Origin: Psammoneis japonica
Taxonomy: Eukaryota
Assembly (NCBI GenBank): GCA_008632985.1
Contig: QPGO01000025.1
Coordinates: forward strand, 124,001 to 188,000
Direction of reading: 5' to 3'
DNA: 64,000 nt
The stretch's first letter is position 1. Every line of letters starts with the position of its first letter. The notes under the pieces are model-generated. The model searched no databases. It saw only the letters and a program-made list of their open reading frames with translations, and was not told the DNA's origin. Shown one piece after another: positions 1,003 to 33,171 of this stretch. A program made the translations under genes and the position numbers.

Positions 1003-1867
1003 TGAACAAAATTGGGGTGATCACGGATTAGACTGAAGAAAAGCAAACAAAGTACTGGTGGCAGTTGTTGCATGATTAGATTTCGTCCACATGAGACGCG
1101 GTGCTTCTTTTGGTCCTGCTGTGAGCACGTGAGCGAGCCCACTCTCCATCGTGAGTCTATGCGTCGACCGTTGTCGTGTGCGCTGCGCACACCCGGAAGT
1201 CTCCTCATGAGACTCTCGCGGAAGTAAGACGGACGATGTACCAGGGTCGTATGTAGGCGATTTGTTGCCATGTCCTCCTGGTGTGTTTCGTGTAGAATTC
1301 TCCGTAGAAAAGTTTTTTGCGCATGTAGAAACGTGTGGGGATTCCGGAGGCATCGCAACAAACCATCCGTCTGAGACTTCCGCGAGAGAGTCCATGGGAA
1401 AACTGTGGGTGCGTGCGAGCGTGGAGCGTGCATGAAGAACGGTTGACGCATGGACTCACGACAGAGAGAGTGACATGAGCCTGTGAGCTGCAGCAGCTGT
1501 GAGTGACTCAAGATTTGTGACGTGCAGGTTGCTGACAAATGGACAGATGGCAATGCTGTGATGTTCGGCATCAACCAGCCAGCGGCGATTCAAGTTTGCC
1601 ACCCAGTGGAGGCAACTGCATCATTGTTTTTCCTCGACAACGATTGAATGAATCGTTGATGCTGTTCAAGGCCATTGAGAAACATTTGACATCTCACGTT
1701 GCAAGATGAGAGTCATGTCAGTTGGGGTGATCGCTGATTGGACTGAAAAAAGGCATGAAAACAAGGAAAATGCTGGTGCGGAGGATGATTGGATTTTGCC
1801 CACTTGGCTGAGACGCAGCACTGCACTGTTGTGAGTCACAGCAAGTCATGATGAGACATGCCCTGTC

Positions 1868-2505
1868 ACCTGGCAGGTGCAAAGAGGGTGTGCAGTGAGC
1901 AGTGCGTGGCACCCTTTGTGGAAACACACGTCCGAAAGTGAGTGCACTCTGACCAGACAAACAACCCAAAACAAGTGCTGGTGCTGAGATCACCACTTTC
2001 TCTTTCCTTCAACATGAGGGCTTTGTCCAAGATTGCCCACTTGGTCCAGCCTTTTCCTGCCTTGTGCTTGCAACCTCTTGCCACTGAGCCAATGACTCCA
2101 TCAGCTGTGCCTCCCTCTTCTCACCCCAAGTCAGCACCCCAAGTCAGCAACCTCCCCCTCTTGCCATTTCCAATGATGCCAGCACTTTCCCCCCACAACC
2201 ACGCAGCCCTTGGTTCCTCAACTGCTTGTCTTCTCTTGGCCCTCCATTTGGCATCATTCTCAGTTGCTCCAAAACCAGCAATGAGATGCCAACCGCTGCC
2301 CCAACCCCCCAACCCCAATGATCTCATTCTGTCTGCACAAAAGTCACTGCTGGCACACAATTCCTTGTGCCAGACAACCAAAACACCGGCGCTGCTCCTC
2401 TGATCTCACCTCTGATTTCCTCTGAGCAAAAGCCACTTTGTTTGACCAAGCCCTCTTGTGCCTCGCTGCTCACCCCAAAGACACAAGCAAACAAAAAGAA
2501 CTGTC
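1868..2505 (+). repeat. Dispersed repeat, diverged direct copy of 19619-20215 (TE fragment)
   Basis: Shared blocks such as gaccagacaaacaacc, caacatgagggctttgtccaa, ccactgagccaatgactc and aagccctcttgtgcctc occur in the same order in both copies. Confidence 0.85.
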
Positions 2506-2519
2506 ATCCACCACGCACC

Positions 2520-3076
2520 TGCAGATGCCAGATGCGGGTGGTGGGTGGCAGATGGCGGATGGTGGGTGCTGGATGCTGGATGGTGGGTGCTGGATGGTGG
2601 GTGCTGCTGGATGCTTGGTGGCAGATGGTGGATGCTGGGTGCTGGATGGCAAATGGCGGGTGGTGGATGGTGGATGGCAGGTTGTGGATGGTGGATGTTG
2701 GATGGCGGATGGTGGATGGCGAGTGCTGGATGATGGATGCTGGATGGCAAATGGTGGATGAGGGGTGGTGGGTGGAGGATGGCAGATGGTGGACACTGGA
2801 TGCTGGACAGCAGATGGCAGATGGTGGATGGCAGATGGTGGATGCTGGATGGCAGATGGCGGGTGGTGGATGGCAGATGGCAGATGGTGGATGGTGGACA
2901 GCGGATGGTGGATGCTGGATGATGGACGGCAGATGGCGGATGGTGGATGGTGGATGGCGGGTGCTGGATGCTGGATTCTGGATGGTGGATGGCAGATGCT
3001 GGATGGCAGATGATGGATGAGGGATGGTGGATGTCAGATTGTGGATGGTGGATGGCGGGTGGTGGTTGGTGGATGA
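2520..3076 (+). repeat. Degenerate 7-bp tandem array (GATGGTG/GATGGCA/GATGGCG/GATGCTG)
   Basis: Heptamer periodicity is directly visible and produces spurious HPPSTIH-type ORFs. Confidence 0.95.
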
Positions 3077-3109
3077 CAAAACCCAAAATCCATTTTTAGG
3101 GTGCTGCTG

Positions 3110-5020
3110 CTCTTCCGCCCCTGCAACAAGGTAACCCACACCCCCAGCACACCTGACGTGTGGCAGGGGCACACAGCAATCAGCTTAAAATGGCACCACA
3201 TTCAGGTGATGCCATGCCAAAGCAACTGGCAACAGCGCGTGTTCCTTGCAATGCCAAACGTTTTGCCTCATGGATGCTGGATTTGAACATGGGTCTGACA
3301 GCAGCTGACCAGTTTTGGAGCCTGTGAGTGGAGTGCAGGAGGTGCTCCTCAACTGAATCAAAAAGTTCTGCTTGGTCCTTGGCCAAGCAGGCACTGGACC
3401 AAGAACATGTGGCCTTGACCTCTGCTTTGGCATCCCAACACTGCACTGATTTGCTGGTCTTGGAATCATGACCATGGATGGCATCATTGTGCTGGTCCCA
3501 TGATTCCCACCACTGATTCCACATGCAACTGTCAACAGTTGCAGCCCAGTCAACTCCAGATGTGTCACAATCTACAGTTGCAACTGTCTTCAAGTGATCA
3601 AGGCACACCTCATTCCAAAAGGAGGAAAAGTGACCATTGAAAAGGTGTCTCCAGCCAATCTGCTCTTGCGTGTGAAACATCTCCAGTGCACTGTGATGAA
3701 GTTCATCTGCACCAATGATGCCTTTGCTGAACCATGATTCCAAGGCTGTTGTCAAGAAATCATGCATGGGAGGAGATGTGTTGATGTCATTGCATTTCTT
3801 GTGCAATCCTTGAAGGAAGGTTTGTCACCATGCTTCATTGCATGGGCACCATGAAATGTGATCCCTGTCCTCCATTGGGTGTTGACAATGAATGCAGCAA
3901 TCAGGTTGGGTGGGATTGTGCCTGTGAACAATCTTGTTGGCAGGCAATGAGTCTTGAACCAGCTTGACTGTGCTTGCTCTTCTGCAAATGTTGTGAGACA
4001 TGAGTTTGGAATGGACAGGCCAATCTGTGAGTTGGAAAGCCTCGTTGTTCCAGCCATGCTTCTCCTTCATGCATTGCACCAGGGCAGGACTTGAAGCTTT
4101 GCAGTCCACATTTTAATCTCTCCTTCTAAGTCTGCTGATGCTGCAAGAAAGGAAGAGACCGACACTGGAGATCAATGTTTGAGATGAAGCACAAACCAGG
4201 AAGTGGCTTCATCGAGTCAATCCATGTCACAGTCACCATCAAAAACAAGGTCTGCAGAGATTGCATCGCCGACATGACCCAAATCCACCAACAAGGGGGG
4301 AACAGTGAGGGGGTGCTGTGGGCCTGTCCAAAGTGTTTTTTGTTGAAAAGTCGAAGAGCAGTGGCAACATCCACGGGAGCATTGACAGCAACCCATTTGT
4401 CACACTCTTTGGGGTTCACAGAGGGGTCACAGGGCACCTGAACGATGTTTGTCCCCATGCCGTGGTCTGCCTTGCAAAACTTAATCTCACAGAATAACTC
4501 CTTGATTTCTTTGGCTTTTTGTGCATTGCGCAGGACAGCGGCTTTCCTCCTGGATGCCTTTGCACCTTCCAGTTCCAGGGCTGCAATCTTCTCCGCCATC
4601 TCCCATTCTCTGTGCACAACAATGGCTGCCGCCACCTTCTGGCATTCAGACTGGGCCATGCGAAGGGCTGTCTGACATTCCGCAAAAGTCTCAGGAATGA
4701 TGGGCAAGCCCTCAATTTGATTCTGAATGTTTCTGATGTGGCCAACATGGTCAATGTGTGAGTGCACATCATGGATCTGACTCAGCTCAAGACACAAACT
4801 CTGTGTCAAAGCTGAGCCGGTTTGATGGACCATTCTGGTTCACGGTGTGCACAACATTTCTTTGCTGTGGCCAGAGAAAATTGCAAAAGGTCTCCATCCA
4901 ATCTCTCAGCCAACTCAAGATCAGGTGTGTTGAGTTCAAAAAGTGCTCTTGATCTGGACAGAATGTCCCAGCTTGCAAGCATGGGACCAACAGCATCAAG
5001 GCACATCATCACTTGAGGTT
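3110..5020 (-). mobile_element. Decayed non-LTR retrotransposon remnant (diatom LINE, possibly Ambal-like), internally deleted
   Basis: Motifs typical of diatom LINE ORFs: NKKHFGQAHSTP (pre-RT region), C-terminal CCIHCQHPMEDRDHISWC zinc finger, QEQIGWRHLFNGH and W..WDQHNDAIHG. No RT core is visible between ~4110 and 4130. Confidence 0.65.
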
Positions 5021-5025
5021 TTGAG

Positions 5026-5472
5026 GAAGACCGTTCTGGCATCGAACGGCCTTTGTCACGAAATCAACGTGGTTCTCATTCCACCAAATTTTGCACTGCA
5101 CAGAATCTAAATTTATGTTGGCAGAGGCAGTGAAATTTTCATTTGTTAAAAAAAAGTCCACAATCACATGTCAATGATAAAATGACACGGTGTCGCATGC
5201 AATGCAAGTCGTGTGGCACCAGCATTGCTCGCAGCATGCGTCGTTTTGCATGTCACGCAGGCAAATGAGTGAGGGAGCCAGGCACCGATGCACTTTTCAT
5301 TTAAAATGCACTCAACTGCTGTTGCTCCTCCAAGCTGCAGCAAGAGCAAGCTCCAACCAAGCAGTGGCACACTGCACACGCGCATTTTGGCTCGCCTTGG
5401 ATTGTTGAATTTGTGCAGATCCAGCTTGAAGATTGTGCCATGATGGGCATCACCACGCAAAGTGCAAGCCAG
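5026..5472 (+). pseudogene. Inverted duplicate of the fasciclin gene 3' end plus downstream DNA (copy of 16047-16494), hypermutated
   Basis: Reverse complement of 16047-16494. Encodes VLASNGLCHEINVVLIPPNFALHRI* versus the genic VLASNGLYHEINAVLIPPNFVLPRI*. Confidence 0.95.
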
Positions 5473-5484
5473 GGTCAGGGATTG

Positions 5485-8235
5485 CAGATGATGCATGATG
5501 GATGATGGATGGTGGATGGTGAATGATGGATGGCGGATGGTGGATGGTGGATGGTGGATGGCGGATGATGGATGGTGGATGGCGGATGATGGATGGTGCA
5601 TGATGGATGGTGGTTGGTGGATGGTGGATGGTGGATGGTGGAGGTGGAGGTGGATGGTGGATGATGGATGATGGATGATGGATGGTGGATGATGGATGAC
5701 GGGTGATGGATGGTGGATGGTGGATGATGGATGAAGGATGACAGATGATGGATGGTGTTTGATGGATGGTGGATGATGGATGATGGATGAAGGGTGATGG
5801 GTGGTGGATGGTGGATGGTGGATGGTGGATGATGGATGATGGTTGGTGTTTGATGGATGGCGGATGATGGATGATGGGTGATGGATGGTGGATGGTGGGT
5901 GGTGGATGATGGATGATGGATGGTGGATGATGGATGATGGGTGATGGTTGGTGGACAATGGATGATGGATGGTGGATGGCGGATGATGGATGATGGATGA
6001 TGGATGGTGGATGGTGGATGGTGGATGGCAGATGATGGATGATGGACGATGGATGGCGAATGATGGATGGTGGATGGTGGGTGGTGGGTGGTGGATGGCG
6101 GATGATGGATGATGAGTGATGGATGGTGGATGGTGCATGATGAATGATGGATGATGGATGGTGGATGGCAGAGGGTGGGTGGAGGGTGATGGATGATGGA
6201 TGATGGCAAGTGGACAGTGGATGATGGATGATGGATGGTGGATGGTGGATGGCAGAAGATGGATGGTTGGTGGCGGATGATGGATGATGGATGATGGTTG
6301 GTGGATGGTGGATGATGGATGGTTGACGACAGATTGTGATGACAGATGATGGATGGCAGATGATGGATGGCAGATGATGGATGATGGATGAAGGGTGTTG
6401 GATGATGGATGGTGGATGGCGGACGACAGATGATGGATGATGGATGATGGGCGATGGTTGGTGGGTGGTGGATGATGGATGATGGTTGGTGTTTGATGGA
6501 TGGCGGATGATGGATGGTGGATGATGGGTGGCGGATGATGGATGGTGGATGGTGGATGGCGGGTGATGGACATCGGATGATGGATGGTGGATGGTGGACG
6601 GTGGACGGTGGACGGTGGACGGTGGATGATGGATGATGGATGATTGATGATGGGTGGAGGGTGGTGGATGATGGATGATGGATGGTGGATGATGGATGGT
6701 GGATGATGGATGGTGGATGGTGGATTGCGGATGATGGATGATGGGCGATGGATGGTGGATGATGGATGGCAGATGGTGGATGGTGGATGGTGGGTGATGG
6801 ATGATGGGTGGCGGATGATGGATGATGGGTGGTGGATGGTGGGTGATGGGTGGCGGATGATGGATGGCGGATGGTGGATGATGGATGCTGGATGATGGAT
6901 GGTGGATGGTGGATGGTGGATGGTGAATGATGGGTGATGGTTGGTGGATGCTGGATGGTGTTTGATGGATGGCAGATGATGGATGATGGAAGATGGTTGG
7001 TGGTTGGTGGATGGTGGATGGCGGATGGTGGATGATGGGTGATGGATGATGGGTGGTGGTTGGTGGATGGTGGATGGTGGATGATGGATGATGGATGATG
7101 GGTGATGGATGGTGGATGGTGGATGATGGATGATTGATGGTTGATGATGGATGGTGGGTGGTGGATGATGGATGATGGATGGTGGATGGCAGATGGTGGA
7201 TGCTGGATGGTGGCTGGCGGATGGTGGATGGTGGGGTGGGTGGATGGTGGATGGTGGATGGCGGATGGCAGATGGTGGATGGTGGATGTTCAATGCTGAG
7301 TGCTGAGTGCTTGATGGTGGATGGCGGATGGCAGATGGCGCGTGGTGGATGGTGGATGGTGGATGGTGGATGGCGGATGTTGGATGCTGGATGCTGGGTG
7401 GTGGCTGGCAGATGGTGGATGGCAGATGGTGGATGTGGGTTGGGGATGCCAGATGCTGGATGCTGGGTGCTGGGTGCTGGATTGTGGATGGCGGATGCTG
7501 GATGGCGGATGGCAGATGCTGGATGGTTGGTGGCAGATGGCAGATGTTGGTTGGTGGATGGTGGACGCTGGATTGTGGATGGTGGATGCCAGATGCCAGA
7601 TGCCAGATGCTGGATGCTGGATTGCAAATGGCGGCTGGTGGCTGGTGGATCACAGATGGCGGATGGCAGATGGTGGATGCTGCATGCAGGGCAGCGGATG
7701 AGGGATGGTGTTGATGGTGGATGGTGGATGAAGGATGCTCCTGGTGGATGATGGGTGGTGGATGGTTGATGGTTGATGGTTGATGGCAGATGGTGGATGG
7801 CAGATGGTGGGTGCTGGATGCTGGATGCTGGACACTGGATGGCGGATGGCAGATGGTGGATGCTGGATGCTGGATGGCGGGTGCTTCTTGGCAGATGGAT
7901 GATGGTGGATGGCGGATGGTGGATGGCGGATGGTGGATGCTTGATGGTGGATGCTGGATGCTGGATGGCGAGTGACAATTGCTGGATGGTGGATGGAGGA
8001 TGGCCAGTGCTGGATGGCAGATTCCTGATGGCAGACAGCAGATGCTGGATGGCGAATGGTGGAAGGCAGATGTTGGATGGATGACAGTGAATGGCAAATG
8101 GCGCATGGCAGATTGTGGATGCTGGGTGGCAGATGTCAGATGTCAGAATGTTGATGGTGGATGGCTGATGGTGCATCATGGAGGATGGCAGATGCTGGAT
8201 GGCAGATGGTTGATGGTGGATGCTGGATGGTGGAC
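5485..8235 (+). repeat. 2.75 kb degenerate 7-bp tandem array (GATGGTG/GATGATG, later GATGGCA/GATGCTG/GATGGCG)
   Basis: Heptamer periodicity is directly visible. The first ~1.7 kb is rich in GATGATG and the last ~1 kb resembles array 2520-3076. Confidence 0.97.
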
Positions 8236-10959
8236 TTTGACAAAAGACCCCTTCCAATGAAAAATTGGACCAATCAGAGCACTTCATTTCAAGGACACAC
8301 ATCATTGCCATGCTTGAAGCTTTCTGAAAGAATGCACATCATCATCATTCAATGATTGCTTCAACACAGACATGGCCATCTTTGTTGATCCATCTCAGAC
8401 AGATGTGCTGCAATGTGACTGGTGCTGGGATAAAGACACCTCACAAAAAATTCATTTTCCTTCTGTCTTTTTGTGTCTCACTCATCATCAGTGCTGACCT
8501 GTGCAAGAGAATTTTGAGAGAAGGAATTTCAGCAGAACGGAGAAGCACCCCCCCCCCCCCCCCAAGCTTCCCAACACCATGGGCATTCAGTCTCAGGCTT
8601 GAAAGCCTGCCTTGAGAACAACAGCAACGGAGCAAGTTTTTTCCAAAAATGCACCTTGGTTTGCACAACGTCACCAACAGCGATGGCAGAATTGCAAATT
8701 CTGACTCCACCAAACAGTCGTGCCCCTCAAGAAAAGCTTGTTGAGTGCAAAAGGTGCAAACAAGTGCCCTCCTGCAAAAAGGGTCATGCTGCAAGCTGCC
8801 CAAAATCCATCCACAGTGGAAAAAACATGAGCACCAAGCAAATCTTGGCTGTCCACCACTTCATCACAAGTGGTGCAAGAAAGGATGCAAGAATTCTGGG
8901 TTGTCAGGCCCCAACTGAGGAAGGCATGGAGACACTGTTCTGCAATGGCGCCAGGGCTTCAAAAACAACAAGCCATCTGCAATGACCATCTTGTTGCCTG
9001 CTCCTGCTGCTCTGCTGCTCTGCTGCTGCCAACACTGCTGCTGCTGCCATCAGCGCCATTGCGTCAAACAGCATGGAGCATTCTGCCAACAATGTTGAAG
9101 AAGATCCTCTCTCTGAGAGGTGCCAGAGAGATTTGGAAACAAATTGAAATGTGCAAAAAAGAAGATTTCTTGTCCTGCACCCACTCAGGCTTTGATTTGA
9201 AGCCTTCTGGACTTGTGCCCACATTGGTTTCATGTGAACTTGAACAAGACAATGGGCAGAGAGGTGAATGCCAAAAAACTCAAATGGCGTCAGCAGAACT
9301 TTCCTTCTGGTGCCATGTCATTTGCAGTGCCATGTGATGACATGACCAAGAAAGACTCTTTGCAACCTCTGCAGTGAGATTGAAGACATTGCAGTCCATG
9401 TCCTCTTCTGGGAAGAATTGCACTTTGCTGACATGTTTTTTGGTGAGGACATTGCATGCAGGCTTGGTCTTTGGCACTGGACAAACCACATCATTTGGAC
9501 TTTGTGAGGTGCTCACAGTGATTGTTGCTGTGCAGTTCATGAATCAAAGGATTGTGCTGGTGCAATGATGAATCCAATGAGGTGAAGGTGGTGGATGCTC
9601 TCATCTTTGGGAAACTTCTTCTTGGTGGGAAGAAGAACATGAGGGAAGAAATTGAGAACATCAAAAACATCAAGAAGTGGAGTGACTGCAAGAAGTGCAT
9701 TCAAAGGTGGACTCATCAACTCAAAACATGGAACAAGCATCTGGAATCTTGGTTCAATCAGCACAAGTGCTCTGCATCTCCTGGCATGGCAGAGGCTGGC
9801 AGATGGCATGACCCAGACTCTTGGAAACCACATTTAATGGAAAACACAAAGCCAGTGGTCAAAAACGCAAAATCACCAGCTCATGGACTTGATGAGCCAC
9901 TGCCATGTGAAGACTCATGCAGAGTTGTCACAAGCCTTCAAAATGGTCCAAGTGCAAGCTTGACATGTTTGCAAGAACAACCACTGGCATGGAATCAAAG
10001 CTTGAAAACCATTGCCACATCATTGAGCATTTTGGAAACTCTGGTTCAAGATCCTCTCTGATGGTGCACTGTGCCTTGCAGGCATGTGTGAGTGCAAAAT
10101 CTCAACATGAGAGCATGTCCAAATGGATGAACTGATTGCTGATGAGTGCACCAAGATTCCGTGCACCTTTCAAGGTGTTCCTGCTTTTGTCAACCACAGC
10201 AAGCTCAGCTGCATCAACAAGCTGGCAGAGAAAGCAGAAGCCCCCCATCCTGTGCACAGGAATGTCAAAGCACTGAAAGAAGATGATGGTGAGTGGCATT
10301 TTTCAGTGCACCTGGAGCAATTGGAACATGTGAGAGAGCAGCTCAAGACAACAAGAGCTGCAACCAGCACAGTGGCAGCAGCAACCAAAAAAGATTCTGA
10401 CAGATTCATGTGCAACAAAAAGTGTGGCACAAGAAACCCACATTCAACCCACTCTAACCCAGTGCCAATTGTGAAGAATCCATGCAAAAGAAAATCCAAG
10501 TTGCAGCACCCACCGCCGTCTGAGGAGCCACGAGCAAAAAAAGTGAAACCTTCCAATTTGCAAGAGGAGGTCATTCCACCAAGACAGCCACAGCCAACAC
10601 CAATTGCCTTTTGCTCTAACCTGCATTGCATCTCAAGTTGAGGACAAGATGGAAGATGTGGAAAATGGGAAATGGGGAGCAATGCCGCCCAAATCAAATC
10701 AACCTTTGCATCTTTTCATGCACAATGGGCTGATGTCCTCTGTCTTCAACACCATGAAAATGCAACAATGCATTGCACCTTGCACTCACCTCCACCATTG
10801 CTGTGTTCTTCTCATCTTTTCCTTCCTCTCCTCTCTTGTTGTTGCAGCAGCAATGGGGTTGCCTTGCTCCCCCTCTCCCCCCTCTTCTTCCATTGGCGCA
10901 CCTCCTGTGTTTTTGTGGAAGGAGTGTGTTGTGACTGAAGAGGCTTGGTTGTAGAGAAT

Positions 10960-11490
10960 TTGGCAAAGAAGTGTCAAGAAAAAGTCATGGCAGCCAAAAA
11001 GGCACTGGATGCACAGTGAGTGGCTCTTGCTGGTTTGTTGAGCCACTGGAAGCTGAGCAGGAGTCTGTTTGTGCTGACAAGCATCATCCTGGTGACTTTT
11101 CTTTCAAAGTGGCTTGGACTTGGGCTGATTGCATCATCAAACACACAAAAGTGAATGACATGATTGATGGGGCTGTGGTGAATGACAGTGAATTTGCTGC
11201 TGTGCCCGCGCAAAGATGCTTTTGATTGAAGATTTCAAACTCAAAACGGCAACAAAGAGAAATCCTCCAGCTGTTTCAGATTGCTTGTTGGAGTCTTTGT
11301 CCCATTCTGTTCTGGACTGGCAAGCGCAATTGTGATGGCATTGAAGCTTGGAGATGGGAAGATCAAAAGGGCCAAGACCCAATGATGAGAGCTGTGATTG
11401 CAGCTGGCATTGGCTGCAATGCTTTTCCTGCTGGTGTTTTTAGCATGGGCCCAGCAACAATTTTGAAATGGAAGCAGAAGCAACCAGATG
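10960..11490 (+). pseudogene. Decayed XPG/FEN1-like nuclease fragment (XPG-I and H3TH motifs)
   Basis: KVAWTWADCII...IDGAVVNDSEF resembles the APxEADAQ...DAVxSxDSD motif. VIAAGIGCNAFPAGVFSMGPATILKW resembles the H3TH motif LxGCDYxxGIxGIGPxTA. Stops and frameshifts are present. Confidence 0.5.
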
Positions 11491-11825
11491 CCCCACCCAT
11501 TTTTTTTTTGCTGAACTTCCATTTTTTTTTTTGCTGGTGGCCGGCCTGATGTCCACATTGGAGCACGTGCATTGTCAAACAATCTCAAGAATCGCCACAC
11601 ACAACATTTGATGTAAACACACATGTGATTCAATTTTGCAACAAGTTGGTGTTCTGTTTGGGCGACAGTGGTGAGGGGTCTTGCGGTTTTGAAAATTTGA
11701 AAAACACGTCATTCTGAAAGAATCAATCTGTGGTGTGATGTTGTTCAATGGCCACGATGAACGCTGGCACCAAATGCAAGGGGAGAGGGGAGCACATGCA
11801 ATGATCATAATTCCATCAAGCATCC

Positions 11826-12207
11826 AGCAGTTGACATCATGAGCAGTGGCAATGATGAAGAGGCATTCCTGTCCTTCAAAGGCTCCATGGATGGCAAATC
11901 AGTGCCAGCTCAAAAGCAAGAAGCAGCGGAACTCATGAGTGGCAGCAATGAAGAGACACCATCACCTGTCAAAGGCCACAAGGACAAGTGCACCGGCAAT
12001 GAGGCATCTCATGGAGCAGTTGATGTCATGAGCAGCAGCAGTGATGAAGAGGCATTCCCATCCTTCAAAGGCTCCATGGATGGCAAATCAGTGCCAGCTC
12101 GAAAGCGAGAAGCAGTGGAACTCATGAGCAGCAGCGATGAAGAGATGCCATCACCTGTCAAAGGCCACAAGGACAAGTGCATTGGCAATGAGGCCGCATC
12201 TCATGGC
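11826..12207 (+). repeat. Two-unit ~190 bp in-frame tandem duplication inside decayed ORF 11839-12624
   Basis: The peptide MSS..DEEAF.SFKGSMDGKSVPA.K.EA.ELMS...EE.PSPVKGHKDKC.GNEA occurs twice. Confidence 0.9.
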
Positions 12208-13799
12208 AAAGCTTTCTCGCGCAAATTGGGTGTGCCGAACGAAGCCACAAACAAAACAAGTTGGAGCAAGAAGCACAGTCAGTGGTGCATGGACGTGAAA
12301 GAACATGGTCAGCATTGTGTGCCTTCAAGTGCTGAAAGTCGGAGTTGGTGTGATCACAAAAAGAAGCACTTCAACAGCCACAAAGCATTCATGGATGATG
12401 GAGGGTCCGATTTGGCATGGGACAAGAAGAGCCGCTGGAAAGGTTGTAGTTTGAACAACATGGAGCTCTTTGAAAAAATGATGCTCCAGCACCCTCGCCT
12501 CCCAACCAGCAACAAAGGCAAGAAAAAGTCAAGGACTGTCTCCCCCAAGGCAGGTGCCAGAACTGACACCCCCAGCAAAAACCAAGCCTTCTGTTTCATG
12601 GCTTCGTTCCTTTCCTTTGATTGAAATTTCATTGGATCAAAACAATGACAACAAAGCCCTTGTCCAAGCATTGTTTTGGCACACAGAGGAGCACCGAATC
12701 ATTGCCATGGAACAAAAAAATGACAATCATGGACGCTGTGCTGTGGATCTACACCACATGTCATTGGAAACAGCTGTGGTGAGAATGTGCTGCTTCATCA
12801 TCTTCCTTGTGCTGACTTTCGAGACTCATCCGTTTCACACATCTGCTTTGTTGAATTCATTGTAGCATGACAAACATGTGAAAACAGCGGGAGACATTCA
12901 GAAACACATTGCTGGAATTGGGCAGAAGACATGCTCTGCCCCTTGCATTGTTGAGAAGCAAATGAAAGGGATGACCCCAAATCAGTTGTGAAGCAAGAAT
13001 GTCATGAAACAGTGCACTGCTGCACAATCACCTTACCTTTCCGACCCACATGCCATCAATCCACACTGCCAATTCCAGAGCAGAATGCTGTGCAACCACA
13101 GTCACAGCAGCAGTGCTGACAAGAGCTGCAACAGTGAAACCTTGTGCATTGAGAAGCAGAGGTTCAGGCGTGATGAGAAGGCAAATGCCGATTTGGAATG
13201 AAACAAACCCAAACAACAGAACAACTCATTGGCATCTTGCACAACATGAAGTGGGCCATCCATGTTCATGAGAGACAAACATCACAACTTCATGAGTGCC
13301 AAACGGCATCTCATGGGAGCAGCAAAGGGCAGTTGCATTCAGGGACTTCTTGGGGGGGTGACAGTCGATGGCATTAGACTGCACTGAAGGATGCCCTTGA
13401 ACTCAGCACTCAGCCGCCGCACATCCCAGCAACGCAACTTTTGCAGTTGCTTCACTTCGTTCATCACTGTTCTGACAATGGGGCATCTCAGCAGACACCT
13501 TCTTGCATTGTTCTGCACAAGCATTAGCATGCCGCCCAACAGGGGACGATGTCTGGCCCGTCAGCTCCGAGTCTCCAGTCTCATTGTTGATGATTGCGGC
13601 AGTGAGTAAAGTGGCGATCGCTCTTTGTTTGCTTCGATGCAATCGTGATGTCACAGGATGATTCCAAAGAAATGACATGTCCATTCATGAATCAATTAAT
13701 GACATTTTTAGAAAGCCAACAGCCCACTTTCACATGGATGGGGTTGGCTCGCTGCCGACCATGTGCCAACCACACTTGTGACAGCAGGCATGGCAGGCA

Positions 13800-15200
13800 G
13801 CAAAAAAATGGATGATTGGCAAAAAAAAAACTCAGACCAGATGCTGCTGCTGCTGACGATTTGTTCAGTTGCCAATTTGAACAAGTCTGGTGTCAACATC
13901 AAGCTGCTCCATGCCTGTGCCATGGCCTTCCTTTGTCAGCCTGCAAACACAATGGATGATGGCAATGAGCCACTTTGCATCCATGAACCCCCCAAACAAC
14001 CACCAGAACACCAAAGAGAATTTGGTGCCAGGTCAACAATGCCAGTTGTGTTGACACTCCCAGGTGGTGTGACTGCTGTGGAACCTGCAAGACCAGCCAT
14101 GCATTTGCTGATGGAGAGTCAGTTGCAATGTGCTCTAAATGAAATTCTCTTCTTTGCTCCTTGTGTGTTGCAAATTGAATGAAGCCAACTGTGGGATGAT
14201 GGGCAACTGCTGCATTCCTTGCATTGCTGGTTTGGAAGTTGTGGGTGCTGATGCCCTGGCAAGTGCTTCAACTGTTGAGCAGATGAGAAAGGCACTTCCA
14301 GCTGAAAACATTCACAGTGCCACTGATCTTGATGCAATTGAGGTCAAAGAGCTGCACGATGCCCTGGTTGACAGTTGCCAGAATGACATTGAAGGCTTGG
14401 ACAGCACTCCATTTCCATTGCTGCCATCATCAGCACTCAATGACAGCACACCAAAGGAGAAAGCACCACTTGACTTTGTGGATGGCACACAGTTTCTGTG
14501 GATGGAAGTGCTGGAGAACTGTGACACATGCCAGGTCATTGACATTTTTGTGAAGCTGATTAAATTTGCATCTTTGGATGACAAGAAGATTGTTGCCAAC
14601 TTTGCATGTGCCTCCTGGCTTGGTGGTGGTGAGCAACTTGTGAAGCAATGTCACCATCATGCCATGTGATCCACAAAATCCTTTACTTCCATCTGGCGGT
14701 GGATGCATCTGTGCGCAGATGCTGATGCCTTGGGGAACAAGCCCGTGCTGCTCTAGCTTGATTGGGTGGTGGTCCAAGCTTCCATGAAAGATGAGTTTTG
14801 CAACACTCGCATCTGCATCGCTCAAGACAGGCTGATGGGTTGCAGTTGTTCTTGCAAATCTGGCTTGGCTGAGAAAGCAAGAGTGTGTTGTCTGCATTCA
14901 TGCACTCATTGAAATGGAACAGCTTTCCCATCTCTTGCCAGAAGGGTGTGTTGACAATGTGATTCATGAGCTTGCCATGTGGTGGGCAAACAGCAGACCA
15001 CTCAACTTGGACATGGGTGTGGAGGCACAAGTTGTCAGTGATCTGTGCCATCTGCTTGCTGTCATGGATGGATCAAAATTTTGCAGGGTTGATTGATCCA
15101 AACCTGAAACTTTCTGAGCTGCTGACAAAGTTTGATGCTTTTGCAGTTGGAACTGAAAAGAGCAAACCACCTGAAAAAAAGAAGAGTGGCAAGTCCAGCT
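13800..15200 (+). pseudogene. Decayed TE-like ORF with a SWIM-type zinc finger
   Basis: About 14772-14900 reads VQASMKDEFCNTRICIAQDRLMGCSCSCKSGLAEKARV..C.H (CxC...CxH pattern). Multiple frameshifts are present. Confidence 0.45.
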
Positions 15201-16407
15201 CCAGTGTGCATTGTGCATTTCCAGGAAGAAGCAAAGGTTTGCATCTCCTGTCCTTTTTAAGCATGATGCAACACTCAACAAAGAGGGTGCCGGGTGCAAC
15301 AAGCAAATGTGTGGCAATTTTGCCACGGTGGGCAAAACATGCAGGTTGCACACAAAGTTACATCAGGCAGCTTTTCTGTTCTTTTTGGCATGCCAAAAAT
15401 GATCACATGTGCAAACCAGCACCACCAGTCCTCAAATCTGCCAAAATGCAAGCTTTTGCAAAATCTCAAACATTGCTGATTTGCACAGATTTGTGTGCAG
15501 ACATGTGCCACCAGCATTCCACCAAATTGGCGCTTGTTGCAACACATCTCCTCCTGCCTCAGCATCAGAAATCACAAAACCAGGCTGACTGCAATGTGCA
15601 AAGCATGTTGTTCTTCATGTGTTGAAACCTCAGCATGTTCGAAATTGTCAAAATTGAAAGACTGGTTGAGTCACAGAGCAACTTGGCCCCAATGTCAAAA
15701 AAGGCCTGTTTCAACACAGCACCTGGGGCTGGAACAGGCCTGCTGCTCTGATCTGTCCTTCCTGCAAAATTCTTTCTAGTTTGTTTGCCTGATTTTTGTT
15801 TTTCTGCAGAGAGTGAAATGCTGTTTCTCATCATTGCACAAGCTCACAGTTGAAAAAATGTGGCAATTGGAAGCGGCAGCAATCACCAAACTCAAGCTCG
15901 CCCGGCCCCCACTTGCACTGCCCTCATTCGAAATCAACTTGGAGGGGCAACTTCAGCTTTCAGCTTTCACACGTCAATGAGAGATTCACTCTCAACTCTG
16001 GCACAAGCGTGCACAGACGATCTTCAACCATCCACTCTGACCTTGTCTGGCTTGCACTTTGCATGGTGATGCCCATCATGGCACAATCTTCAAGCTGGAT
16101 CTGCACAAATTCAACAATCCAAGGCGAGCCAAAATGTGCGTGTGTAGTGTGCCACTGCTTGGTTGGAGCTTGCTCTTGCTGCAGCTTGGAGGAGCAACAG
16201 CAGTTGAGTGCATTTTAAATGAAAAGTGCATCGGTGCCTGGTTCCCTCACTCATTTGCCTGCGTGATGCGCGAAACGACGCATGCTACGAGTAATGCCGG
16301 TGCCATACGACTTGCATTGTATGCGATACCGTGTTATTTTATCGTTAACATGTGATTGCGGACTTTTTTTAACAAATGAAAGTTTCACTACCTCCGCCAA
16401 CATAAAT

Positions 16408-17464
16408 TTAGATTCGCGGCAGTACAAAATTCGGTGGAATGAGAACCGCGTTGATTTCGTGATAAAGGCCGTTCGATGCCAGAACGGTATCTTCGACCAT
16501 GCTACTGTCGTTTAGGGTGATTTTTCCATCACTGTCAACCGTCACCGCAATGTCTTCTCCTTGGAGTGTACCTAGTGGGGATAAAATTGGTAGGAATGAC
16601 GTGGTAGGTCAATACCTCGGTCAAAGCATCTGGGTTGCTGCCGAGAAAATCGAGGATATCTTGAGGAACAGCATCAAAAGCGTCGTCGTTGGGTGCCATG
16701 ACCGTTTGACCTTCGGCTGTAGGGGGTCCAGTGAGCGCGTCGGTCAAACCAGCGGCCTCAACCAAACTGAGTAGAGTTGTAAAACTTCCATCCTCCGTGA
16801 GTCTCTCTGGGATATTCGAGGTAACACACGGAGGAAGAAGGACGCCCGTTGCAAGGCTATGGATGAATCCGTTAGACGCTTCAATGTCAGGAATAGATAC
16901 CGGAATACCGTTCACTGTTACAGTGTCTCCGCTGCGGTCAAGGTTCAGTTGGAAATCTGGTTGGGCCGAAGTTACCGTGAGAGGCCCAGTGATGGCATTG
17001 GAAGGAACAGCGGTGGTAAGAACGTGACCTAAAAGCACACATGCGAGGTGATTTGTCCACGGCTCGGAGACGAGAAGTTCGACCGCGCCATTGGGGAGAG
17101 TGGCAAAAGCGGTGTCCTCCGGAGCGAACAAAGTAAGATCCGCGTCTTCGTTCCCCAAAGTTTCGGCAATGGCAGATGGGGCAGCGAGAACTGCTGCTTC
17201 AAGTGTGTTATGAATATCGGAATCAACAACGATCTCAAGAATGGTGGGACCCGGACTCGGCGGAGTAGGAGCTGACATACTGGCGCCTTCTTCAAGGAGC
17301 CTTTCCCAGAGGTTGCTTTCTTCTTGCCACAAGCCGGATTCTTCAAACCCCAACGACTCCTTCGCATTACTGTAATCTCGCTTGCTTCCGACATGGCCGA
17401 TTCTGGCTGAAGATGCCAGAACGCAGCTTGAAGCCAACAGAGTCGTTAGAATCTTCATTTTCAT
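16408..17464 (-). CDS. Secreted fasciclin (FAS1) domain protein with two FAS1 domains, frameshifted near 16573
   Basis: Signal peptide, LTLFAPEDTAF, DIEASNGFIH, TVMAPNDDAF and LTYHVIP. The second domain finishes in another frame (GTLQGEDIAV...VLASNGLYHEINAVLIP, TAA at 16408-16410). Confidence 0.9.
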
Positions 17465-17824
17465 CCTTAACTCTACTCACAAACAATCAAATGAGGAGTG
17501 CGGGAAAAAACGTCGAGTGCGCTTTACGAGAAATTCAAAACGCAACAGCAATTTCGAAATTTTTGGCACATGACATGAAAGAAGAAAAAAAGCTGATACT
17601 ACTACTTGGGTAAATTATAAACTTAGCTGAATGTATGTCTATGTTCGTTGTCGACCATGCGCACGGCAGCCTATCCTGTCCGTTATGCATAATCGATCTG
17701 GCTGTACAGCTGACATTACTGTGTAATCAAAGCTGTACATATATTATGTTTTTTAGATGCAGTACTGTAGCATTCCGATCCTCTATTGCTTTCCGTTGGT
17801 ACGATTTTGAATCTTTTTACCGGC

Positions 17825-20800
17825 GCATTGCATGTGCAAGCAGAAGGCAAGCAGGATGACCGTTGCTGACAGTGCAGTGTGCAACATTGTTGAATGGTGC
17901 CGATTTTGTGTTGTTGTGAAGTTGAAAGAAGTTGCAAGAAACAGCTGCAGACCACCATGGTGACTTGCACAAACGACCATGTCATTTCATGTGGACTCTT
18001 TTTTCATGTGGCTCAGTGCACAACAACATCAAATCCACTCAGCTGACATTGCCATGGTTCTGTGAGCGGTGCTGTGTGATTTTCAACTTCACAAAATTTG
18101 CATGAGTCTAAAATGCATTTCTTGATTGACCTCACACATGCAACCTTTCCAACATTTGGCCACATGATGCCAGTTGATCCATGATTTTCCCAACATGTGC
18201 TGGTGTCAGAAAGCAGCTTGGCTTGCAGTCAGCATGATCATCATGTGGTGTGAAAAAGCCTTGTTGGCATCAAAGCATCTGCCCACCAGTGCCACGCATC
18301 ACTGGTGCTCTCTGCCACAAACAACAAATGAAACAAAAATCAAATTCATGTGCCTTTCATTGTCACATTTTTTGGCTGGGAAGGAAGCACGGGCAGATGA
18401 TGTGTTTTCAACTCTCAGGCAAAGCCTGTGTGTGTGAGAACATGACAATGTGTCCTTCTTCCCTCCATCACAGTGCAATTTTTGCCAGGAAAATTTTGCT
18501 CCACCCACACCCACAGCTCATGTGTTTCCCCAATTTTTCACATCTCATTTCATCAGATCTGTCCATTTTTGGCAACTGGCCCATCTTCTTCATTGCTTGG
18601 AGGGTGGAGCATTGGAAAGAGAGATCTTCTAGAGGACTTTTGTCAGAAAATGACACAAAACTGCGATTGTTTTCTGTGCAACTTTGAGCCACTGTTTTGC
18701 AGTTTCTTTTGTTGCTGGGTTTGACTCTTTTGAAGGAAGTGCCACATTCTTCATTGCACGAAAAGCTCACATGAAAAAATGACACTCTCTTCTGGCCTCA
18801 CGCATTTGATCAGAAAAATTGGGAGAACTGACTTGCATGTGTGTTCCTCCTGTGTGTTTCTGTGCAATCAGCTGTCTCAAAAGTTAACCTGTGTGGGAGT
18901 CTTGAGCAAATTGTGCATCAATTGTTGTCACAGCACTGGCCATTTTGATGTGTGTTGAGCAATTGAGTGATTTGCTTGCAGAAACAGATGTGTTGCAGCA
19001 AGACATTCACAGAGTTTTGAATGGCCAGGTCACTTGTCACCATTTCTGCCACAAAGTCTTCATTTTGATGCTCTGTCCCATCACTCTTCTGAAGTGAAGA
19101 TGGCTGTGGTGGAGTGGTGGGAGTTGATGCATCTGTTGTCAGAATGACATTGGGGGGGGGGGGGGGGGGCTTTGAGAGGATGCTCATGTTGAAGCTGGTG
19201 CTGCAGGAGATCTTTCTTCCTTTTCCATGGGTGCCATGAACAGTTGAGTTCCTCATCCTCTCAATGTGCTGCAAATGATGTGGCTTGTGCTGTCACATTC
19301 ATGGAGAGCTTGCTCTGTTGTCACTCAAACTGAGTTGCAGTGATAAATTTTGATGCTTGGGTCTGTTGCTCTTCTGTTCTGGAGATGACTGAAGTGCAGT
19401 TTGAGGTGACAGATCCATGCTCATCTGAGAGAAATGCCTTTTCCTCTCTTTGTCCTTCTGTTGCTTCACAAGCTTTTGACTCTGGTTGCTCTCTTGTTCC
19501 TGTTTCTCTTCTTGGTGTCAGCCACTGAAAAATGATGCTTGTCATGCAAAAATGACATGGTTGTGCCATTGGCAGAATGGCTTTGAAATGGACTTGTGAC
19601 AAGACCCCAGAAACACACCCTGGCAGATGCAGAGAGGGTGCACAGTGCACAGCATGCAAAAGCACAAGTTGGAAAGCAAGTGCACCCTGACCAGACAAAC
19701 AACCTAAAACAAGTGCTGGTGCCAAGATCACTCCTGCTTTCAATGGTCCTCTTTCCTCCAACATGAGGGCTTTGTCCAATGTTGGCTGCTTGTCCCAGCC
19801 TTCTCCAGCCTTGTGCTTGCTTGTGTCCTCTCCCCACTGAGCCAATGACTCTGTCAGCTGTGCCTCCCTCTTCTCATTCCAAGTCAGCAACACCTCCTCT
19901 TGCCCCTCAACAATGCCCACACTTTCCTCCACACCCACACATCCCTTGGTTTCTTGACCGCTTGTCTTCTCTTGGCCCTCCCTTTGGCATCATCCTCAAT
20001 TTTTCCAAGACCAACAGGATGCCAACCTCTGCCCCAACCCCCTGACCCCAGCAATGATCTCGTTTTGTCTGCCCCAAAGTTGCTGCCAGCACCCTGTTCC
20101 TTGCCAGACAACCCACATCAGCTCCAATTTCTTCTGAGCCAAAGACACTTCATTTGCCCAAGCCCTCTTGTGCCTCACTGCCTGCCTCAAATGCACAAGC
20201 AAACCCAAAGCACTTCTTCTGCCATGCACCACCTCCTTCTTGCTGCCAACACATGCGGCACTGCAACTGTCAGCCTTCCAAATTTCCAGACCTCTTTCAT
20301 GATTGGACCTCTCTTTTTGCAGACACCATCACAGGTCACTCCTTCCACTTCTTTTCTTGCCTCACTGCCCCACCCCTTCAATTCTTTTGACTGTGGCCCT
20401 GCTTGTCACCTCCCTCCCAGCCTTCTTCCTGGGAGGCAAAGGTGTTGCCATGACACTGTCACACCTCAGCTGTCACTTCTGTCCTGATTTCTGACCCACT
20501 CTCTCTGCTTTGCCAAACAGGGCACATCTCTCACCCTGGCAACCACTGCTTTTGTCTTCCAGCCAGCCACTCCTTTGCCCTCTCCTCTTGGACCAACCCA
20601 TGCTCCACCCTTTGCCTCCAGCATGCCATCATCTTCTGCTTCCTCACCCCTGCCCTTTTCTGACTGGACTTCTCTGTCTGCAGCTCCCTCTCATCTGCTG
20701 TGCCCAACCACAATGTTCAAGGCTCAGCCCAATGTGCCCATCTGCATCACCAACAAGACACTCTTTTCATGCTCCCAAATCACCCGGGACCTTTGGTTGG

Positions 20801-23800
20801 TTCTTCCTTTCCTGCCATCCCTGCTGACCAGCTTTTGTCTGCTCTCACCATCCCAACAAGCTTGCCCAGCAGCCAAGCAGCTCTCTTTCTCCCAATTTGC
20901 CCTCCTCCTCTGAAAGCTTTGCCTCCCCGCCACTCCCCTTGACTTTCAGCATTTGACCTGCCATTCTGGCCACTGCACCTGGGATCCTGTTGGAGACCAT
21001 GCTTTTGCCTGCTCAAAGATGCACAAAAGCCCCCCTCTCCAACCACATTTGAGACAACATTCATGCTGTTGTCAAGTCCCTTGGCCCTCTCTCCAGCCTT
21101 TGCCACTCTTGTTGCCACCACATCTTCCTTGAGCCAACCAGTTTCCTCCCCAGCTGCCCACCCAAAAGATCTGCTGGTGCAGGTGTCCATCTTCTTGTCC
21201 CTGGCTCTGACCCTCCCAGTGCCCCCTCTGCACCAAAACTTCCATGCTGTTGATGTTGCCATGCCCGTGGCTCCTCCCTGCTGTGCACCTGGTTTGCCTG
21301 CACCCCAGCCTTCTTGCCAAGGCTTGCCTCAGCAGTGCCCAGGATAAGCTCTTCAGTTGCAACACACTCCCAATGCACTCCAGTTCCAGATGGGACCTTG
21401 CACCACTGCACTGCCACATCAATGGTTTGTTGGATTGCACTGTGTGTTGCATGCCTGTGCTTCTGCATGTCTTTGGTAAAATTTTGCTTTGTTTTGCAGT
21501 GCAATTGTTGGGCAATCCATTGGCAACTTTTGATGTTTCTCAAGGAGGGGGGTTGGCCCATGTTCGTCAGAGCATGCATTGCAGTGATTGAGGCTGCCTG
21601 TCTCACAGCAATTTTTGACCTTTTCATGGGTGACATTTTTGCACCCTCCAGTGACAAAAGCATGTTTCACTGTGAAACAGCCACCCATTTTCCATGTGAG
21701 AGTGCCCACCCTGTGTCCTTGCAAAACCTTTGAAAATTGAAATCATTTGCATTGCAGCATTTTATTTTGTCATTTGCACTTAAGCTGCCATTCAGTGCTG
21801 ATGGCAACAAAGGACCCCAAAGGGGAAAGATGTTGCCTCACCTGGAACAATGGGGCAGCCCCACAGACAACATCACAAGAGAACACAAATTCACCACAGT
21901 CAAGCAACAGCTGCCAGATGTGCTCCCAGTCTTTCACCACAAGCCCAGAGCAATGAAGAGAGTGCAGAGACTCAACAAGGCAATGTGAGTGCCAGTGCAC
22001 AATGTCAAGTGCCCAGCTCTGCCCCTGCAACTCAAAGAAAACATGCGTGAGCTTGTCAACATGATGGGATTCCAAGGCATCACAGCAGAAAGGCTCAAAC
22101 TGTTGTGGCATGACACTGTGTTGGACCATCTGGCAGCAACACCAAAAAAGCAAGTGGTCAGTGCAGTGCTGCAAGGACTGATCTTTTGGCAGAGCAAAGG
22201 GCACAAGAACTGCAGATGCAAGAGGTCTCACTGGCCAAGCAGAGATGCTGCCAACAGCACTCCTTGCAAGAGTGGATGCTTGGAGCTGCATTTGCAAGAG
22301 GAGGAATGTTGCACCAGCAGAAAGCATGAACATTGTGAGAAGCAGAGCCACAATGGAGTGTGACTTCCCTTTTTCTGTTGACACTTGCCAAGAAGCAACA
22401 GCTTCACTTGAGAACACCAACAATCAAAGAGAGCAAGTCTTGGAGCATGTGTGAGTGCTGCTTTCCCTGTCCTGGTGAAGCAGCAATTTGCATTGAAGTT
22501 GCTCACAGAAGACCACAGAAGCTGCCACAGAACCCCAGCAAACAAGATCCGTTCTGGCAACAAGTTCTGTCCAGGTGTCCTGGCAATCACAAGGAAACAA
22601 GTGCAAACATCAGACAAGGGTCAGGGGAAACTTGTGATCAAAGCATGAGGGCTCCTGTGTAGAGCACTGAAGAAAGCACATGAAGGTGTGTGCAACATCC
22701 AACAAATCCCTTGCATGGAAGGCACTGGACATGTTGAGAAACCACACAAAGACAGTTCAGCACATGTGGAAGCCACACCTTTGACTTTGGGACTCCACAA
22801 GACCACCAATGGCCACTGACTTGCCAAAACTGGGAGATTCATTGCACACCTCAGTGACAAAAATCTTGGGTTGCAATCCTTGAGCAAAAAGTGTGCATGT
22901 CAAGAGCCTCGATGGACCACCTGCTGAATGAGCAGCAGCACTGCCAATGACCAACTCTGGAGTCAGAAGCAAGACCAACTCCCAGTGGATGCAACAGAAA
23001 CACTTGAGAAAGCATGTGAGGAAACAAGCAACCTGCAATGATTCTGGATGCAAAACTCTGGCATGTGTGGTTGTGCCAATGCTGCAGAAAAGTTTATAAA
23101 GAGGCTTGTCACCAGAGGTCACCACAACCAAAATGCCATCTGTGACCATTTTGTGGAGCTGCAGAGTGGATGGATTAATGCCCTCAGCAACCAGACTCCA
23201 CATGCTCAGCATTGTTCTTCTGCAAGTGGGGGGTGTTGCCCAAGAGGTGCGCTGATCTGACATGCATGCAATGACATGCTGGCTCAGCATTCTGGATGAC
23301 TCAACAGATTTATGATGGCATGCTTGCAACCATGAAACTCAAGAGATGCCCCAATCAAAGCCTGTCTTGACAAGCCAGAAGGGCAGCAGGTCTCACAATG
23401 CATTGAACTGCTGTCATCAGCTGATTGGGCAATGGTTGTCAATTGGCAACAACACGCAGAATGCACATGAATCACAACAGCACGCACTCTTGCTTTTCAT
23501 TGTGTGGGCAGAGGGTGTGCTGTTGTGAAGTGTGCAGAAAATTGCACAAAAAAAGCTGAAAATGCCACAGACCATCAGGCTGTGCAAATCTGGGAGGCAT
23601 GAAGAACAATTTGTGATGGGGGTGTGTGTGCATGTGCATGGCTGAGGTGGGCTGCACACATGCAAGGACACACATGCAAGTGGGAAGGACAAAGTTAAAA
23701 CCAAGCTCAGCTGACGACCATCAAAAGAAAAACTGCGTGTCACAAAAAAGTGTCAACCCCAATTGAGTTGAACATTGCATGCATTTGATCACAGCTTGCA

Positions 23801-24745: not shown

Positions 24746-24901
24746 AGACTACCTAGAGCACAACACATTCACACTGTTTTTTTCCCCTCAAGAATATGCT
24801 AAACATAAGCTGTTTGTCTATATGTACAAATCTATAGCTCGCATTTGCAGGCAACCAGTATGCTTCGCCGTGGGCAAACAAGTTTTACCCAACAAGCTCC
24901 A

Positions 24902-32436: not shown

Positions 32437-32559
32437 CCAAACGTCATCTGTTCACTGCTCAACATGAGTTGATCAGCGACTTGGACAAGATTCGGGAGAA
32501 TGTGGTTTGTTGCGGGAGATGCACTTTATGCCACAACAATGCACAGGCCAGTGTTGAGT

Positions 32560-33135: not shown

Positions 33136-33171
33136 TGTTTAGCGAGAAAGCCGTTTTCTCATTGCACAGCA

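Follow-up and report, generated by a model that had tools for sequence, protein, structure and literature searches.

Decay of an inverted fasciclin gene copy points to directional, domain-targeted loss of TpA and CpG in a diatom genome

The window, i.e., the whole stretch of 64,000 nucleotides (64 kb) from Psammoneis japonica that was analysed, carries a fasciclin gene, an inverted copy of its 3' end, a LINE remnant, a 7-nt satellite and a proteasome Rpt2 ORF, among other features (Table 1). The copy is located between the LINE remnant and the satellite, 11 kb from its source. The best relatives of the fasciclin gene are transcripts of marine eukaryotes, and its reading frame shifts near 16588-16571, owing to a genuine frameshift or to an indel in the assembly; as the gene is possibly broken, purifying selection on the source is not to be assumed, while the comparison with orthologs is unaffected. 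The named matches of the Rpt2 ORF are all diatoms (Rhizosolenia, Leptocylindrus, Proboscia, Odontella, Staurosira, and Bacillariaceae).

Table 1. Coordinates of the features discussed in the text, in positions of the window
Feature	Position	Strand	Evidence or characteristics
Islands	1-1600, ~16260-17820, 24400-27400, 38000-47000, 48000-52400, 55200-61200, 61600-64000		Segmentation
Ocean holding the copy	1401-16259		TA o/e 0.00-0.08 in long segments, CG o/e 0.18-0.32, TG/CA o/e 1.7-2.0
Non-LTR retrotransposon (LINE) ORF2-like remnant, C-terminal region	3183-3824	-	620 relatives at E ≤ 1e-3
Decayed inverted copy of the fasciclin 3' end	5026-5478	+	Alignment, dinucleotide fates, translation, bridging contig
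3-nt patch, source CGC and copy ACA	5100-5102	+	Holds all 3 transversions; does not fit the model
7-nt satellite (GGATGGT / GGATGAT type)	5475-8340	+	Abuts the copy; 0 TA in 2866 nt
Tandem duplication within the ocean	11826-12206	+	17 transitions, 0 transversions
Source segment: fasciclin coding end (stop 16410-16408) and downstream flank	16037-16494	-	
Fasciclin island	16260-17820		TA o/e ~0.56, CG o/e ~0.95, both edges sharp
Fasciclin gene (FAS1, PF02469)	16408-17476	-	502 relatives at E ≤ 1e-3, best 65% identity
Proteasome Rpt2 ORF	44791-46185	-	87-95% identical to many sequences

Segmentation by TA and CG content divided the window into two states, genic 'islands' and intervening 'oceans', that have equal GC content (0.48-0.50). 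The islands have observed/expected ratios (o/e) of 0.38-0.56 for TA, 0.89-1.04 for CG and 1.1-1.4 for TG/CA and contain long conserved ORFs, whereas the corresponding values in the oceans are 0.00-0.08, 0.07-0.51, and 1.7-2.1. In absolute numbers, 93 TA were counted in 35,200 nt of ocean vs. 893 in 25,955 nt of island, and the oceans with near-zero TA make up ~55% of the window. Within the ocean that holds the copy, three short intervals of 400 nt, one of them the copy itself, reach a TA o/e of 0.16-0.18. The edges of the fasciclin island are sharp to within ~70 nt: at the left one (16216-16286), which is spanned by the source segment, TA spacing changes from ~1 per 400 nt to ~1 per 12 nt, and TA density falls again after 17818. 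All 60 ocean ORFs of at least 140 aa have no or a single Tyr, and none of the 56 that were searched against Pfam (four satellite ORFs were excluded) was assigned to a family at the curated cut-off. The counts of TG and CA per kb in the oceans outside the satellite gave no consistent strand asymmetry, and a transcription- or replication-strand model was dropped on this ground.

Local alignment of 5026-5478 (plus strand) with the reverse complement of 16494-16037 gave 452 aligned columns with 28 substitutions (25 transitions and 3 transversions, 93.8% identity) and three indels of 2, 1, and 4 nt. The first-pass annotation had described 5026-5472 as an inverted copy of 16047-16494, a relationship that was also recovered by a repeat search (arm pairs 5149-5472/16047-16370 with 94% and 5030-5154/16364-16488 with 92% identity) and by blastn (5030-5472 vs. 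16488-16047, 93.45% over 443 positions). Leaving the satellite aside, this pair is the strongest repeat of the window. The copy comprises the last 26 fasciclin codons with the stop (5030-5110), followed by ~360 nt of downstream DNA. Its source segment has 17 TA and 25 CG, while the copy is left with 5 TA and 17 CG.

The differences between the two are concentrated on these dinucleotides. Seven of the source TA became TG and four became CA, five were kept and one lies in an edge indel, exactly as had been counted by eye in the first-pass annotation (11 converted, five remaining, one lost at the edge). The source CG were kept in 15 cases and became TG in three and CA in five, with two more falling in the patch; the earlier figure of ~8 conversions is therefore correct, while the total of ~20 CG that it implied is too low. 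An alignment followed by Fisher tests, proposed there as a check, bore out the concentration: changed positions amount to 11/33 at TA (p = 1.8e-9) and 11/50 at CG (p = 1.7e-7), in both cases against 6/369 at positions that belong to neither. Likewise, 11 of the 15 AT>GC differences fall on a source TpA, and three of the remaining four (5252, 5277, 5382, and 5456) are CpG-related. Six transitions are located outside source TA and CG, more than the ~2 substitutions first reported, a number that applies only once the four CpG-related ones are set aside and two (5136 and 5277) are left without a fit to the model. As for these four, 5251-5252 is CA in the source and TG in the copy, as would result from the decay of a single CpG in each of the two, and 5382 and 5456 fall on CG in the copy and on CA/TG in the source. 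All four may stem from decay of CpG in the source or else from A>G changes at CpA in the copy, and the latter would mean a wider specificity. The five example changes quoted at first are all present in the alignment, and the Tyr>Cys replacement among them is borne out by translation.

The loss is one-sided. At informative sites the copy lost 11/16 TA and the source 0/16 (p = 6.8e-5), and no position across the alignment has TA in the copy and CA or TG in the source. Within the copy, the loss at informative sites reaches 11/16 for TA vs. 8/23 for CG (p = 0.054), and CG depletion is shallower than TA depletion in every ocean, in line with the first proposal that TA is lost at least as fast as CpG decays. 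Relative to a background of 2/369, the excess is ~107x for TA and ~39x for CG, as estimated from one alignment. The changes are also distributed according to the composition that the source has on the two sides of the island edge: its island half (16494-16260), with 15 TA and 22 CG, differs from the copy in 24/233 columns, and its ocean half, with 2 TA and 3 CG, in 4/219. Segments that were devoid of TA and CG already before the duplication thus changed almost nowhere afterwards.

Since the islands coincide with long conserved ORFs and the source includes coding sequence, the same picture might arise if TA and CG mutation pressure acted on the whole genome and purifying selection on genes alone kept both dinucleotides in the islands. 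We regard this as quite improbable, as a CG o/e of 0.89-1.04 means that no CpG decay takes place in the islands. Moreover, the codon 3-1 boundary, the least constrained one, has a TA o/e of 0.56 and a CG o/e of 0.91 in 10 island ORFs, 10-20 times the ocean values, and the non-coding flanks within the fasciclin island (16260-16407 on the 3' side and 17477-17820 upstream) are TA-dense. With a pressure of ~100x background, synonymous and flanking TA would have been erased. The codon boundary and the TA-dense flanks together argue that selection on proteins is not the cause of island TA.

The existence of both versions was checked in Logan contigs from one public run, the one of three listed runs that contains the stretch; no RNA run is listed as containing it. 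A contig of 337 nt (depth 70.6) covers 4971-5307 with the letters of the copy, bridges the left junction and differs from the window at a single position, 5068 C>T, which is one further CG>TG. The source letters were found in a separate contig of 5480 nt (depth 62.6), at 25 differing places plus a 1-nt gap. On 5014-5307 the contigs contain no third version at ≥ 90% identity, and the depth there equals the sum of both pieces; copy and source are two distinct sequences at single-copy depth. These contigs support the source and, at 4971-5307, the copy, both of which the first-pass annotation had suggested confirming with spanning long reads or PCR; the assembly may itself derive from this run, so that the check is not independent of the sample. 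The segment 5308-5472 is covered by the source-version contig only, and neither there nor across the satellite junction was a copy-lettered contig found, a gap that proves nothing, as such contigs drop variants.

These contigs also bear on the idea that the pattern is a sequencing or assembly artefact, in which modified bases (5mC at CpG, T or A at TpA) were misread or the copy was misassembled. Miscalls on the two strands of a modified palindromic dinucleotide would indeed give TG or CA at random, much like what is observed, the run has no recorded platform, and the contigs possibly derive from the window's own data. Nevertheless, we consider an artefact highly improbable: contigs assembled from exact 31-letter words extend to 315 kb at an even depth of ~65-70, which fits accurate reads, and the two versions are in separate contigs, one of which bridges the left junction. 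Had conflicting strands been settled by majority at each position, many TA and CG would still be seen, yet the satellite has no TA at all, and the failure of all 56 ocean ORFs to reach the Pfam threshold fits real decay rather than intact elements with misread letters.

The direction of the changes was examined by comparing the coding ends of both versions with the 50 motif-bearing sequences among 120 fasciclin relatives listed. The translated copy ends in TVLASNGLCHEINVVLIPPNFALHRI and the translated source in TVLASNGLYHEINAVLIPPNFVLPRI, each followed by the stop. At the Tyr/Cys site, the Cys of the copy was found in 0/50 relatives (Ile in 39, Val in 8, and Tyr, Trp, and Ala in one each), and at the Ala/Val site, the Val of the copy was found in 0/50 and the Ala of the source in 19/50. 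The absence of the copy's Cys and Val from these 50 relatives indicates that the source is ancestral at both motif sites. At two further coding sites downstream, the close relatives (63-65% identity) have Val/Thr/Ile and Pro, in agreement with the source, and the copy Ala and His. Judged from these comparisons, TAT>TGT and GTA>GCA (both at TA), GCG>GTG (at CG), and the 3-nt patch are derived in the copy. The initial assumption that the source gives the ancestral state hence stands at the coding sites of the conserved motif, and for the nine non-coding TA changes the same direction is suggested indirectly, by the composition of the compartments. A metagenome scan with the fasciclin protein for outgroup DNA returned 16 loci, the best with 54% identity over a segment and none alignable at the 3' flank.

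Polarity also decides on a reversed scenario in which the copy is the older version and a process resembling repeat-induced point mutation (RIP), with C>T at CpA, created the source TA after the duplication. RIP targets duplicated DNA of about the length of the copy and produces transitions only, and many diatoms are described as having DNMT4, which is related to RID, a factor in fungal RIP. This scenario is hardly credible, because the relatives match the residues of the source and not those of the copy at the coding sites, because RIP enriches repeats in TA while the repeats here have a TA o/e of 0.00-0.08, because RIP does not make the T>C changes in the source that the CG vs. TG/CA differences require, and because RIP mutates both copies, whereas the TA differences are one-sided (11 vs. 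0). Barely conceivable, too, is an origin of the copy via an RNA intermediate hyper-edited from A to I by an ADAR-like enzyme before insertion, even though reverse transcriptase is encoded by relatives of the LINE remnant next to the copy and a 5'-U preference of ADAR is mentioned in bioRxiv 10.64898/2026.01.13.699255, as a single RNA strand would yield A>G on one strand only and not seven TA>TG with four TA>CA, CpG decay and TA-free satellite and unique DNA require a process at the DNA level, and the fragment is oriented opposite to the LINE remnant.

Further ocean sequences show the signature. Long relatives of the LINE remnant carry RVT_1, Exo_endo_phos or zf-RVT domains. The remnant itself has no Tyr in 214 aa (0% vs. 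2.9% in its relatives) and is rich in Cys (4.2% vs. 0.9%), with Cys at both family columns in which Tyr reaches 87% and 70%. Arg is kept in two of its 11 conserved Arg columns and replaced by His in three, by Ser and Ala in two each, and by Cys and Gln in one each. Based on these residues, the remnant is an independent polarised case of the same process. The 7-nt satellite has a second array at ~2400-3150, and its contig depth is 6500-7800 vs. ~65-70 in single-copy DNA. In the tandem duplication, five adjacent CA/TG doubles account for 10/17 transitions, and five more are CG vs. TG/CA. Such doubles make up 15/31, 5/6, 5/14, 5/22, 1/1, and 3/11 of the adjacent double differences in the six repeat pairs other than the fasciclin one and were also found against paralogous contigs at 4365/6, 4386/7, and 4991/2. 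They imply that an ancestral TA or CG was resolved separately in each sister copy, at times in opposite directions, and show independent decay but not which of the two dinucleotides decayed; by our own estimate, a CG-only origin fits the doubles of the tandem pair as well.

The TA that survived are not a random sample. Among residual TA, TTA or TAA contexts account for 74/93 in the oceans vs. 340/893 in the islands, and TTAA is 8-fold enriched among residual ocean TA. Conversely, ATAC was counted 0 times in oceans vs. 153 in islands, ATAT 0 vs. 57, and ATAG 1 vs. 95. The copy follows the same preference, with TTA/TAA contexts at 5/5 surviving vs. 4/11 lost TA (hypergeometric, p ~0.03). The preferred word is roughly V-T-A-B, which points to an enzyme, and the sparing of TTA/TAA favours enzymatic action over spontaneous chemistry.

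Taken together, we think it likely that a directional process converting TA and CG into TG/CA, targeted to domains, has acted on a real copy, whatever the identity of the enzyme. A piece of ~450 nt from the 3' end of the fasciclin gene was duplicated in inverted orientation and landed inside an ocean, where A>G or T>C changes would subsequently have removed 11 of the copy's 16 informative TA, and C>T or G>A changes 8-9 of its CG, while the part of the source within the island would have lost no TA. The oceans, made up of retrotransposon remnants, satellite and unannotatable DNA, would be driven from TpA and CpG to TpG/CpA on both strands. The first-pass annotation had proposed that a repeat domain drives TA to TG/CA on both strands, which agrees with the seven TG and four CA and with the position of the copy in a ~14-kb TA-poor stretch (o/e 0.00-0.08). 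Beyond what was noted at first, the process is window-wide and not special to the fasciclin fragment. As the source was spared (0/16 TA lost), duplication is not the trigger, and as a host gene fragment is affected inside the domain, location or chromatin state, and not foreign origin, appears to determine what is targeted; neither sequence origin nor duplication would then mark a target.

At the molecular level, TpA in silent chromatin may receive an enzyme-driven, sequence-selective lesion, with ordinary deamination of methylated CpG running alongside. By analogy with the system described below, this lesion could be an adenine deaminated to inosine by a putative enzyme and read as G, an option that we rate as a serious candidate while stopping short of calling it probable. 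A mutagenic thymine modification of the 5-hydroxymethyluracil (5hmU) type is an unlikely alternative.

A TpA-specific mutation process is so far reported only in one chlorarachniophyte, Bigelowiella natans. In mutation-accumulation lines of this species, two integrated viral regions mutated ~1000x faster than other DNA in some lines only, nearly all changes being A>G/T>C and all of them on TpA, which became TpG or CpA depending on the strand (Mettrop et al. 2026, bioRxiv 10.64898/2026.01.13.699255). According to the available text of that preprint, the genome contains clusters that are poor in TpA, rich in CpA and TpG and populated by transposon-like and unannotatable genes, and its authors propose a DNA adenine deaminase, with an ADAT2-like candidate, directed against foreign DNA; this text makes no mention of diatoms, of stramenopiles, of CpG or of any broader sequence context (10.64898/2026.01.13.699255). 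As far as that text shows, both cases share the conversion of TpA to TpG/CpA, the confinement to discrete regions and the depletion of TpA with enrichment of CpA/TpG. They differ in lineage (Rhizaria vs. a diatom, i.e., a stramenopile) and in targets, which are two integrated viruses in B. natans and here a host gene fragment, satellite, LINE remnant, and all intergenic DNA. Depletion is mild in B. natans (Rho_TpA 0.45 in the NCLDV region, clusters ≤ 0.43) and reaches 0.00-0.08 here. CpG decays in the same domains and TTA/TAA is spared in our case, two aspects on which the available B. natans text has no statement, and rates were measured in B. natans and inferred here. Targeting restricted to foreign origin does not describe the present locus, where the host fasciclin fragment, the satellite and DNA without a recognizable family are affected beside the LINE remnant.

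Fungal RIP resembles the process described here as a transition-only, DNA-level degradation of repeats and transposons that creates compositional compartments and serves genome defence. It acts by C>T at CpA, creates TpA, responds to duplication and alters both members of the pair, unlike our case, in which TpA is destroyed, non-repeated DNA is affected and change is limited to the copy located in the silent domain (11 vs. 0 TA). Decay of methylated CpG, as in vertebrates and plants, is similar in that CG>TG/CA is confined to silent, transposon-rich DNA while genes keep a CpG o/e of ~1; here, 8/23 informative CG became TG/CA, and CG o/e is 0.07-0.51 in oceans vs. 0.89-1.04 in islands. It accounts for the CpG half only and involves no loss of TpA. 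Very-short-patch repair of Escherichia coli, which is biased from T:G mismatch to C:G, turns TA words into CA/TG words and depletes CTAG, but it is bacterial, bound to one methylase word and mild in its effect, and its dependence on the supply of replication errors makes it unlikely to reach ~100x background. In dinoflagellates, formation of the modified base 5hmU by a TET/JBP-type enzyme silences transposons (PMC11572971). As an enzymatic thymine modification concentrated on the silent repeat DNA of an alga of the SAR group, 5hmU could be a source of T>C at TpA, the dinucleotide that it prefers, but it is not known to leave a mutational signature. For diatoms, CpG methylation of Phaeodactylum transposons is described as dependent on DNMT5a (PMC9998398), and a mutation-accumulation study of Phaeodactylum tricornutum names CG/CC/TG as mutagenic dinucleotides, with TpA unmentioned in its available text. 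No report of TpA-specific loss in diatoms was found in the literature covered, which extends to few of the subscription journals.

In its broadest form, our proposal would be that diatoms possess a chromatin-domain-targeted DNA editing, with V-T-A-B as preferred word, of any accessible silent TpA, host-derived DNA included, to which decay of methylated CpG is added, an 'inverse RIP' that would employ a putative DNA adenine deaminase or thymine modifier and represent an old, SAR-wide genome defence. We put this forward tentatively, as a possibility that may well turn out otherwise. If it is true, transposons would be stripped of TAA/TAG stops, Tyr codons and TA-rich signals, and its presence in a stramenopile as well as in a rhizarian would point to an old mechanism shared across SAR. 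Mutation of TpA only and in silent DNA only, at ~100x background as inferred here, would constitute a new kind of genome defence. To what is known from B. natans, the locus adds the signature in a diatom, a member of another major and ecologically dominant lineage, and indicates that near-complete erasure of TpA is possible across the larger part of a genomic region. The fasciclin fragment provides a clean measure of the spectrum with an internal control, and the sparing of TTA/TAA is a starting point for defining the specificity of the putative enzyme.

The signature also has practical consequences. Repeats are misdated by substitution models that ignore the TA process, and transposon annotation fails on TA-free DNA, in which the scarcity of stop codons results in long spurious ORFs; the one sub-threshold Pfam match among the 56 ocean ORFs was to DUF6626 (E = 0.0032).

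As TAA and TAG are nearly absent from the oceans (the TA- and CG-poor stretches of the window), long stop-free frames are numerous there, for instance at 11761–12621 (+) and 30441–31859 (+), and outside the satellite the longest reach up to 473 aa. These frames hold 0–1 Tyr together with an excess of Cys, His, and Trp, and would be miscalled as genes. In the 7-nt satellite all three frames are open on the TA-free strand; TA is absent from both arrays, their GC skew rises to 0.86, and the depth of the satellite contigs (6500–7800 vs. ~65–70 for single-copy DNA) shows that this repeat is very abundant in the genome.

Repeated features located in the window
Feature	Positions	Description
Direct repeat	1869–2519 and 19619–20230	~650 nt, 74% identity
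7-nt satellite arrays	2400–3150 and 5475–8340	GGATGGT/GGATGAT type

The depletion of TA is equally complete in the oceans at 30600–38000 and 17800–23200, whereas their CpG o/e differs (0.4–0.5 vs. 0.07), which suggests either different ages or some re-creation of CpG, for example through A>G at CpA. Some variants of the satellite, GGCGGATGG among them, show this change. The two copies of the direct repeat, which probably belongs to an older family of transposon or satellite-flank type, each sit on the margin of a stretch devoid of TA, and their differences include 15 adjacent doubles, with CA in one copy and TG in the other.

Within the decayed inverted duplicate of the fasciclin 3' end, position 5068, a CpG site, is C in the window and T in the corresponding contig assembled from a public sequencing run (possibly the window's own data); this may be a further CG>TG step, polymorphic or haplotype-specific. 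The duplicate continues at 5472–5478 directly into the GGATGG satellite, and on the source side (16037–16046) the right end of homology adjoins a flanking word that resembles GGATGG; the junction may have been guided by microhomology. In the fasciclin itself, a one-base frame shift was observed at 16571–16588 (-), between '...YHVIPTNFIPT' and 'PLGTLQGEDIAV...', which reflects either a real frameshift, possibly making this gene a pseudogene, or an assembly indel within a homopolymer.
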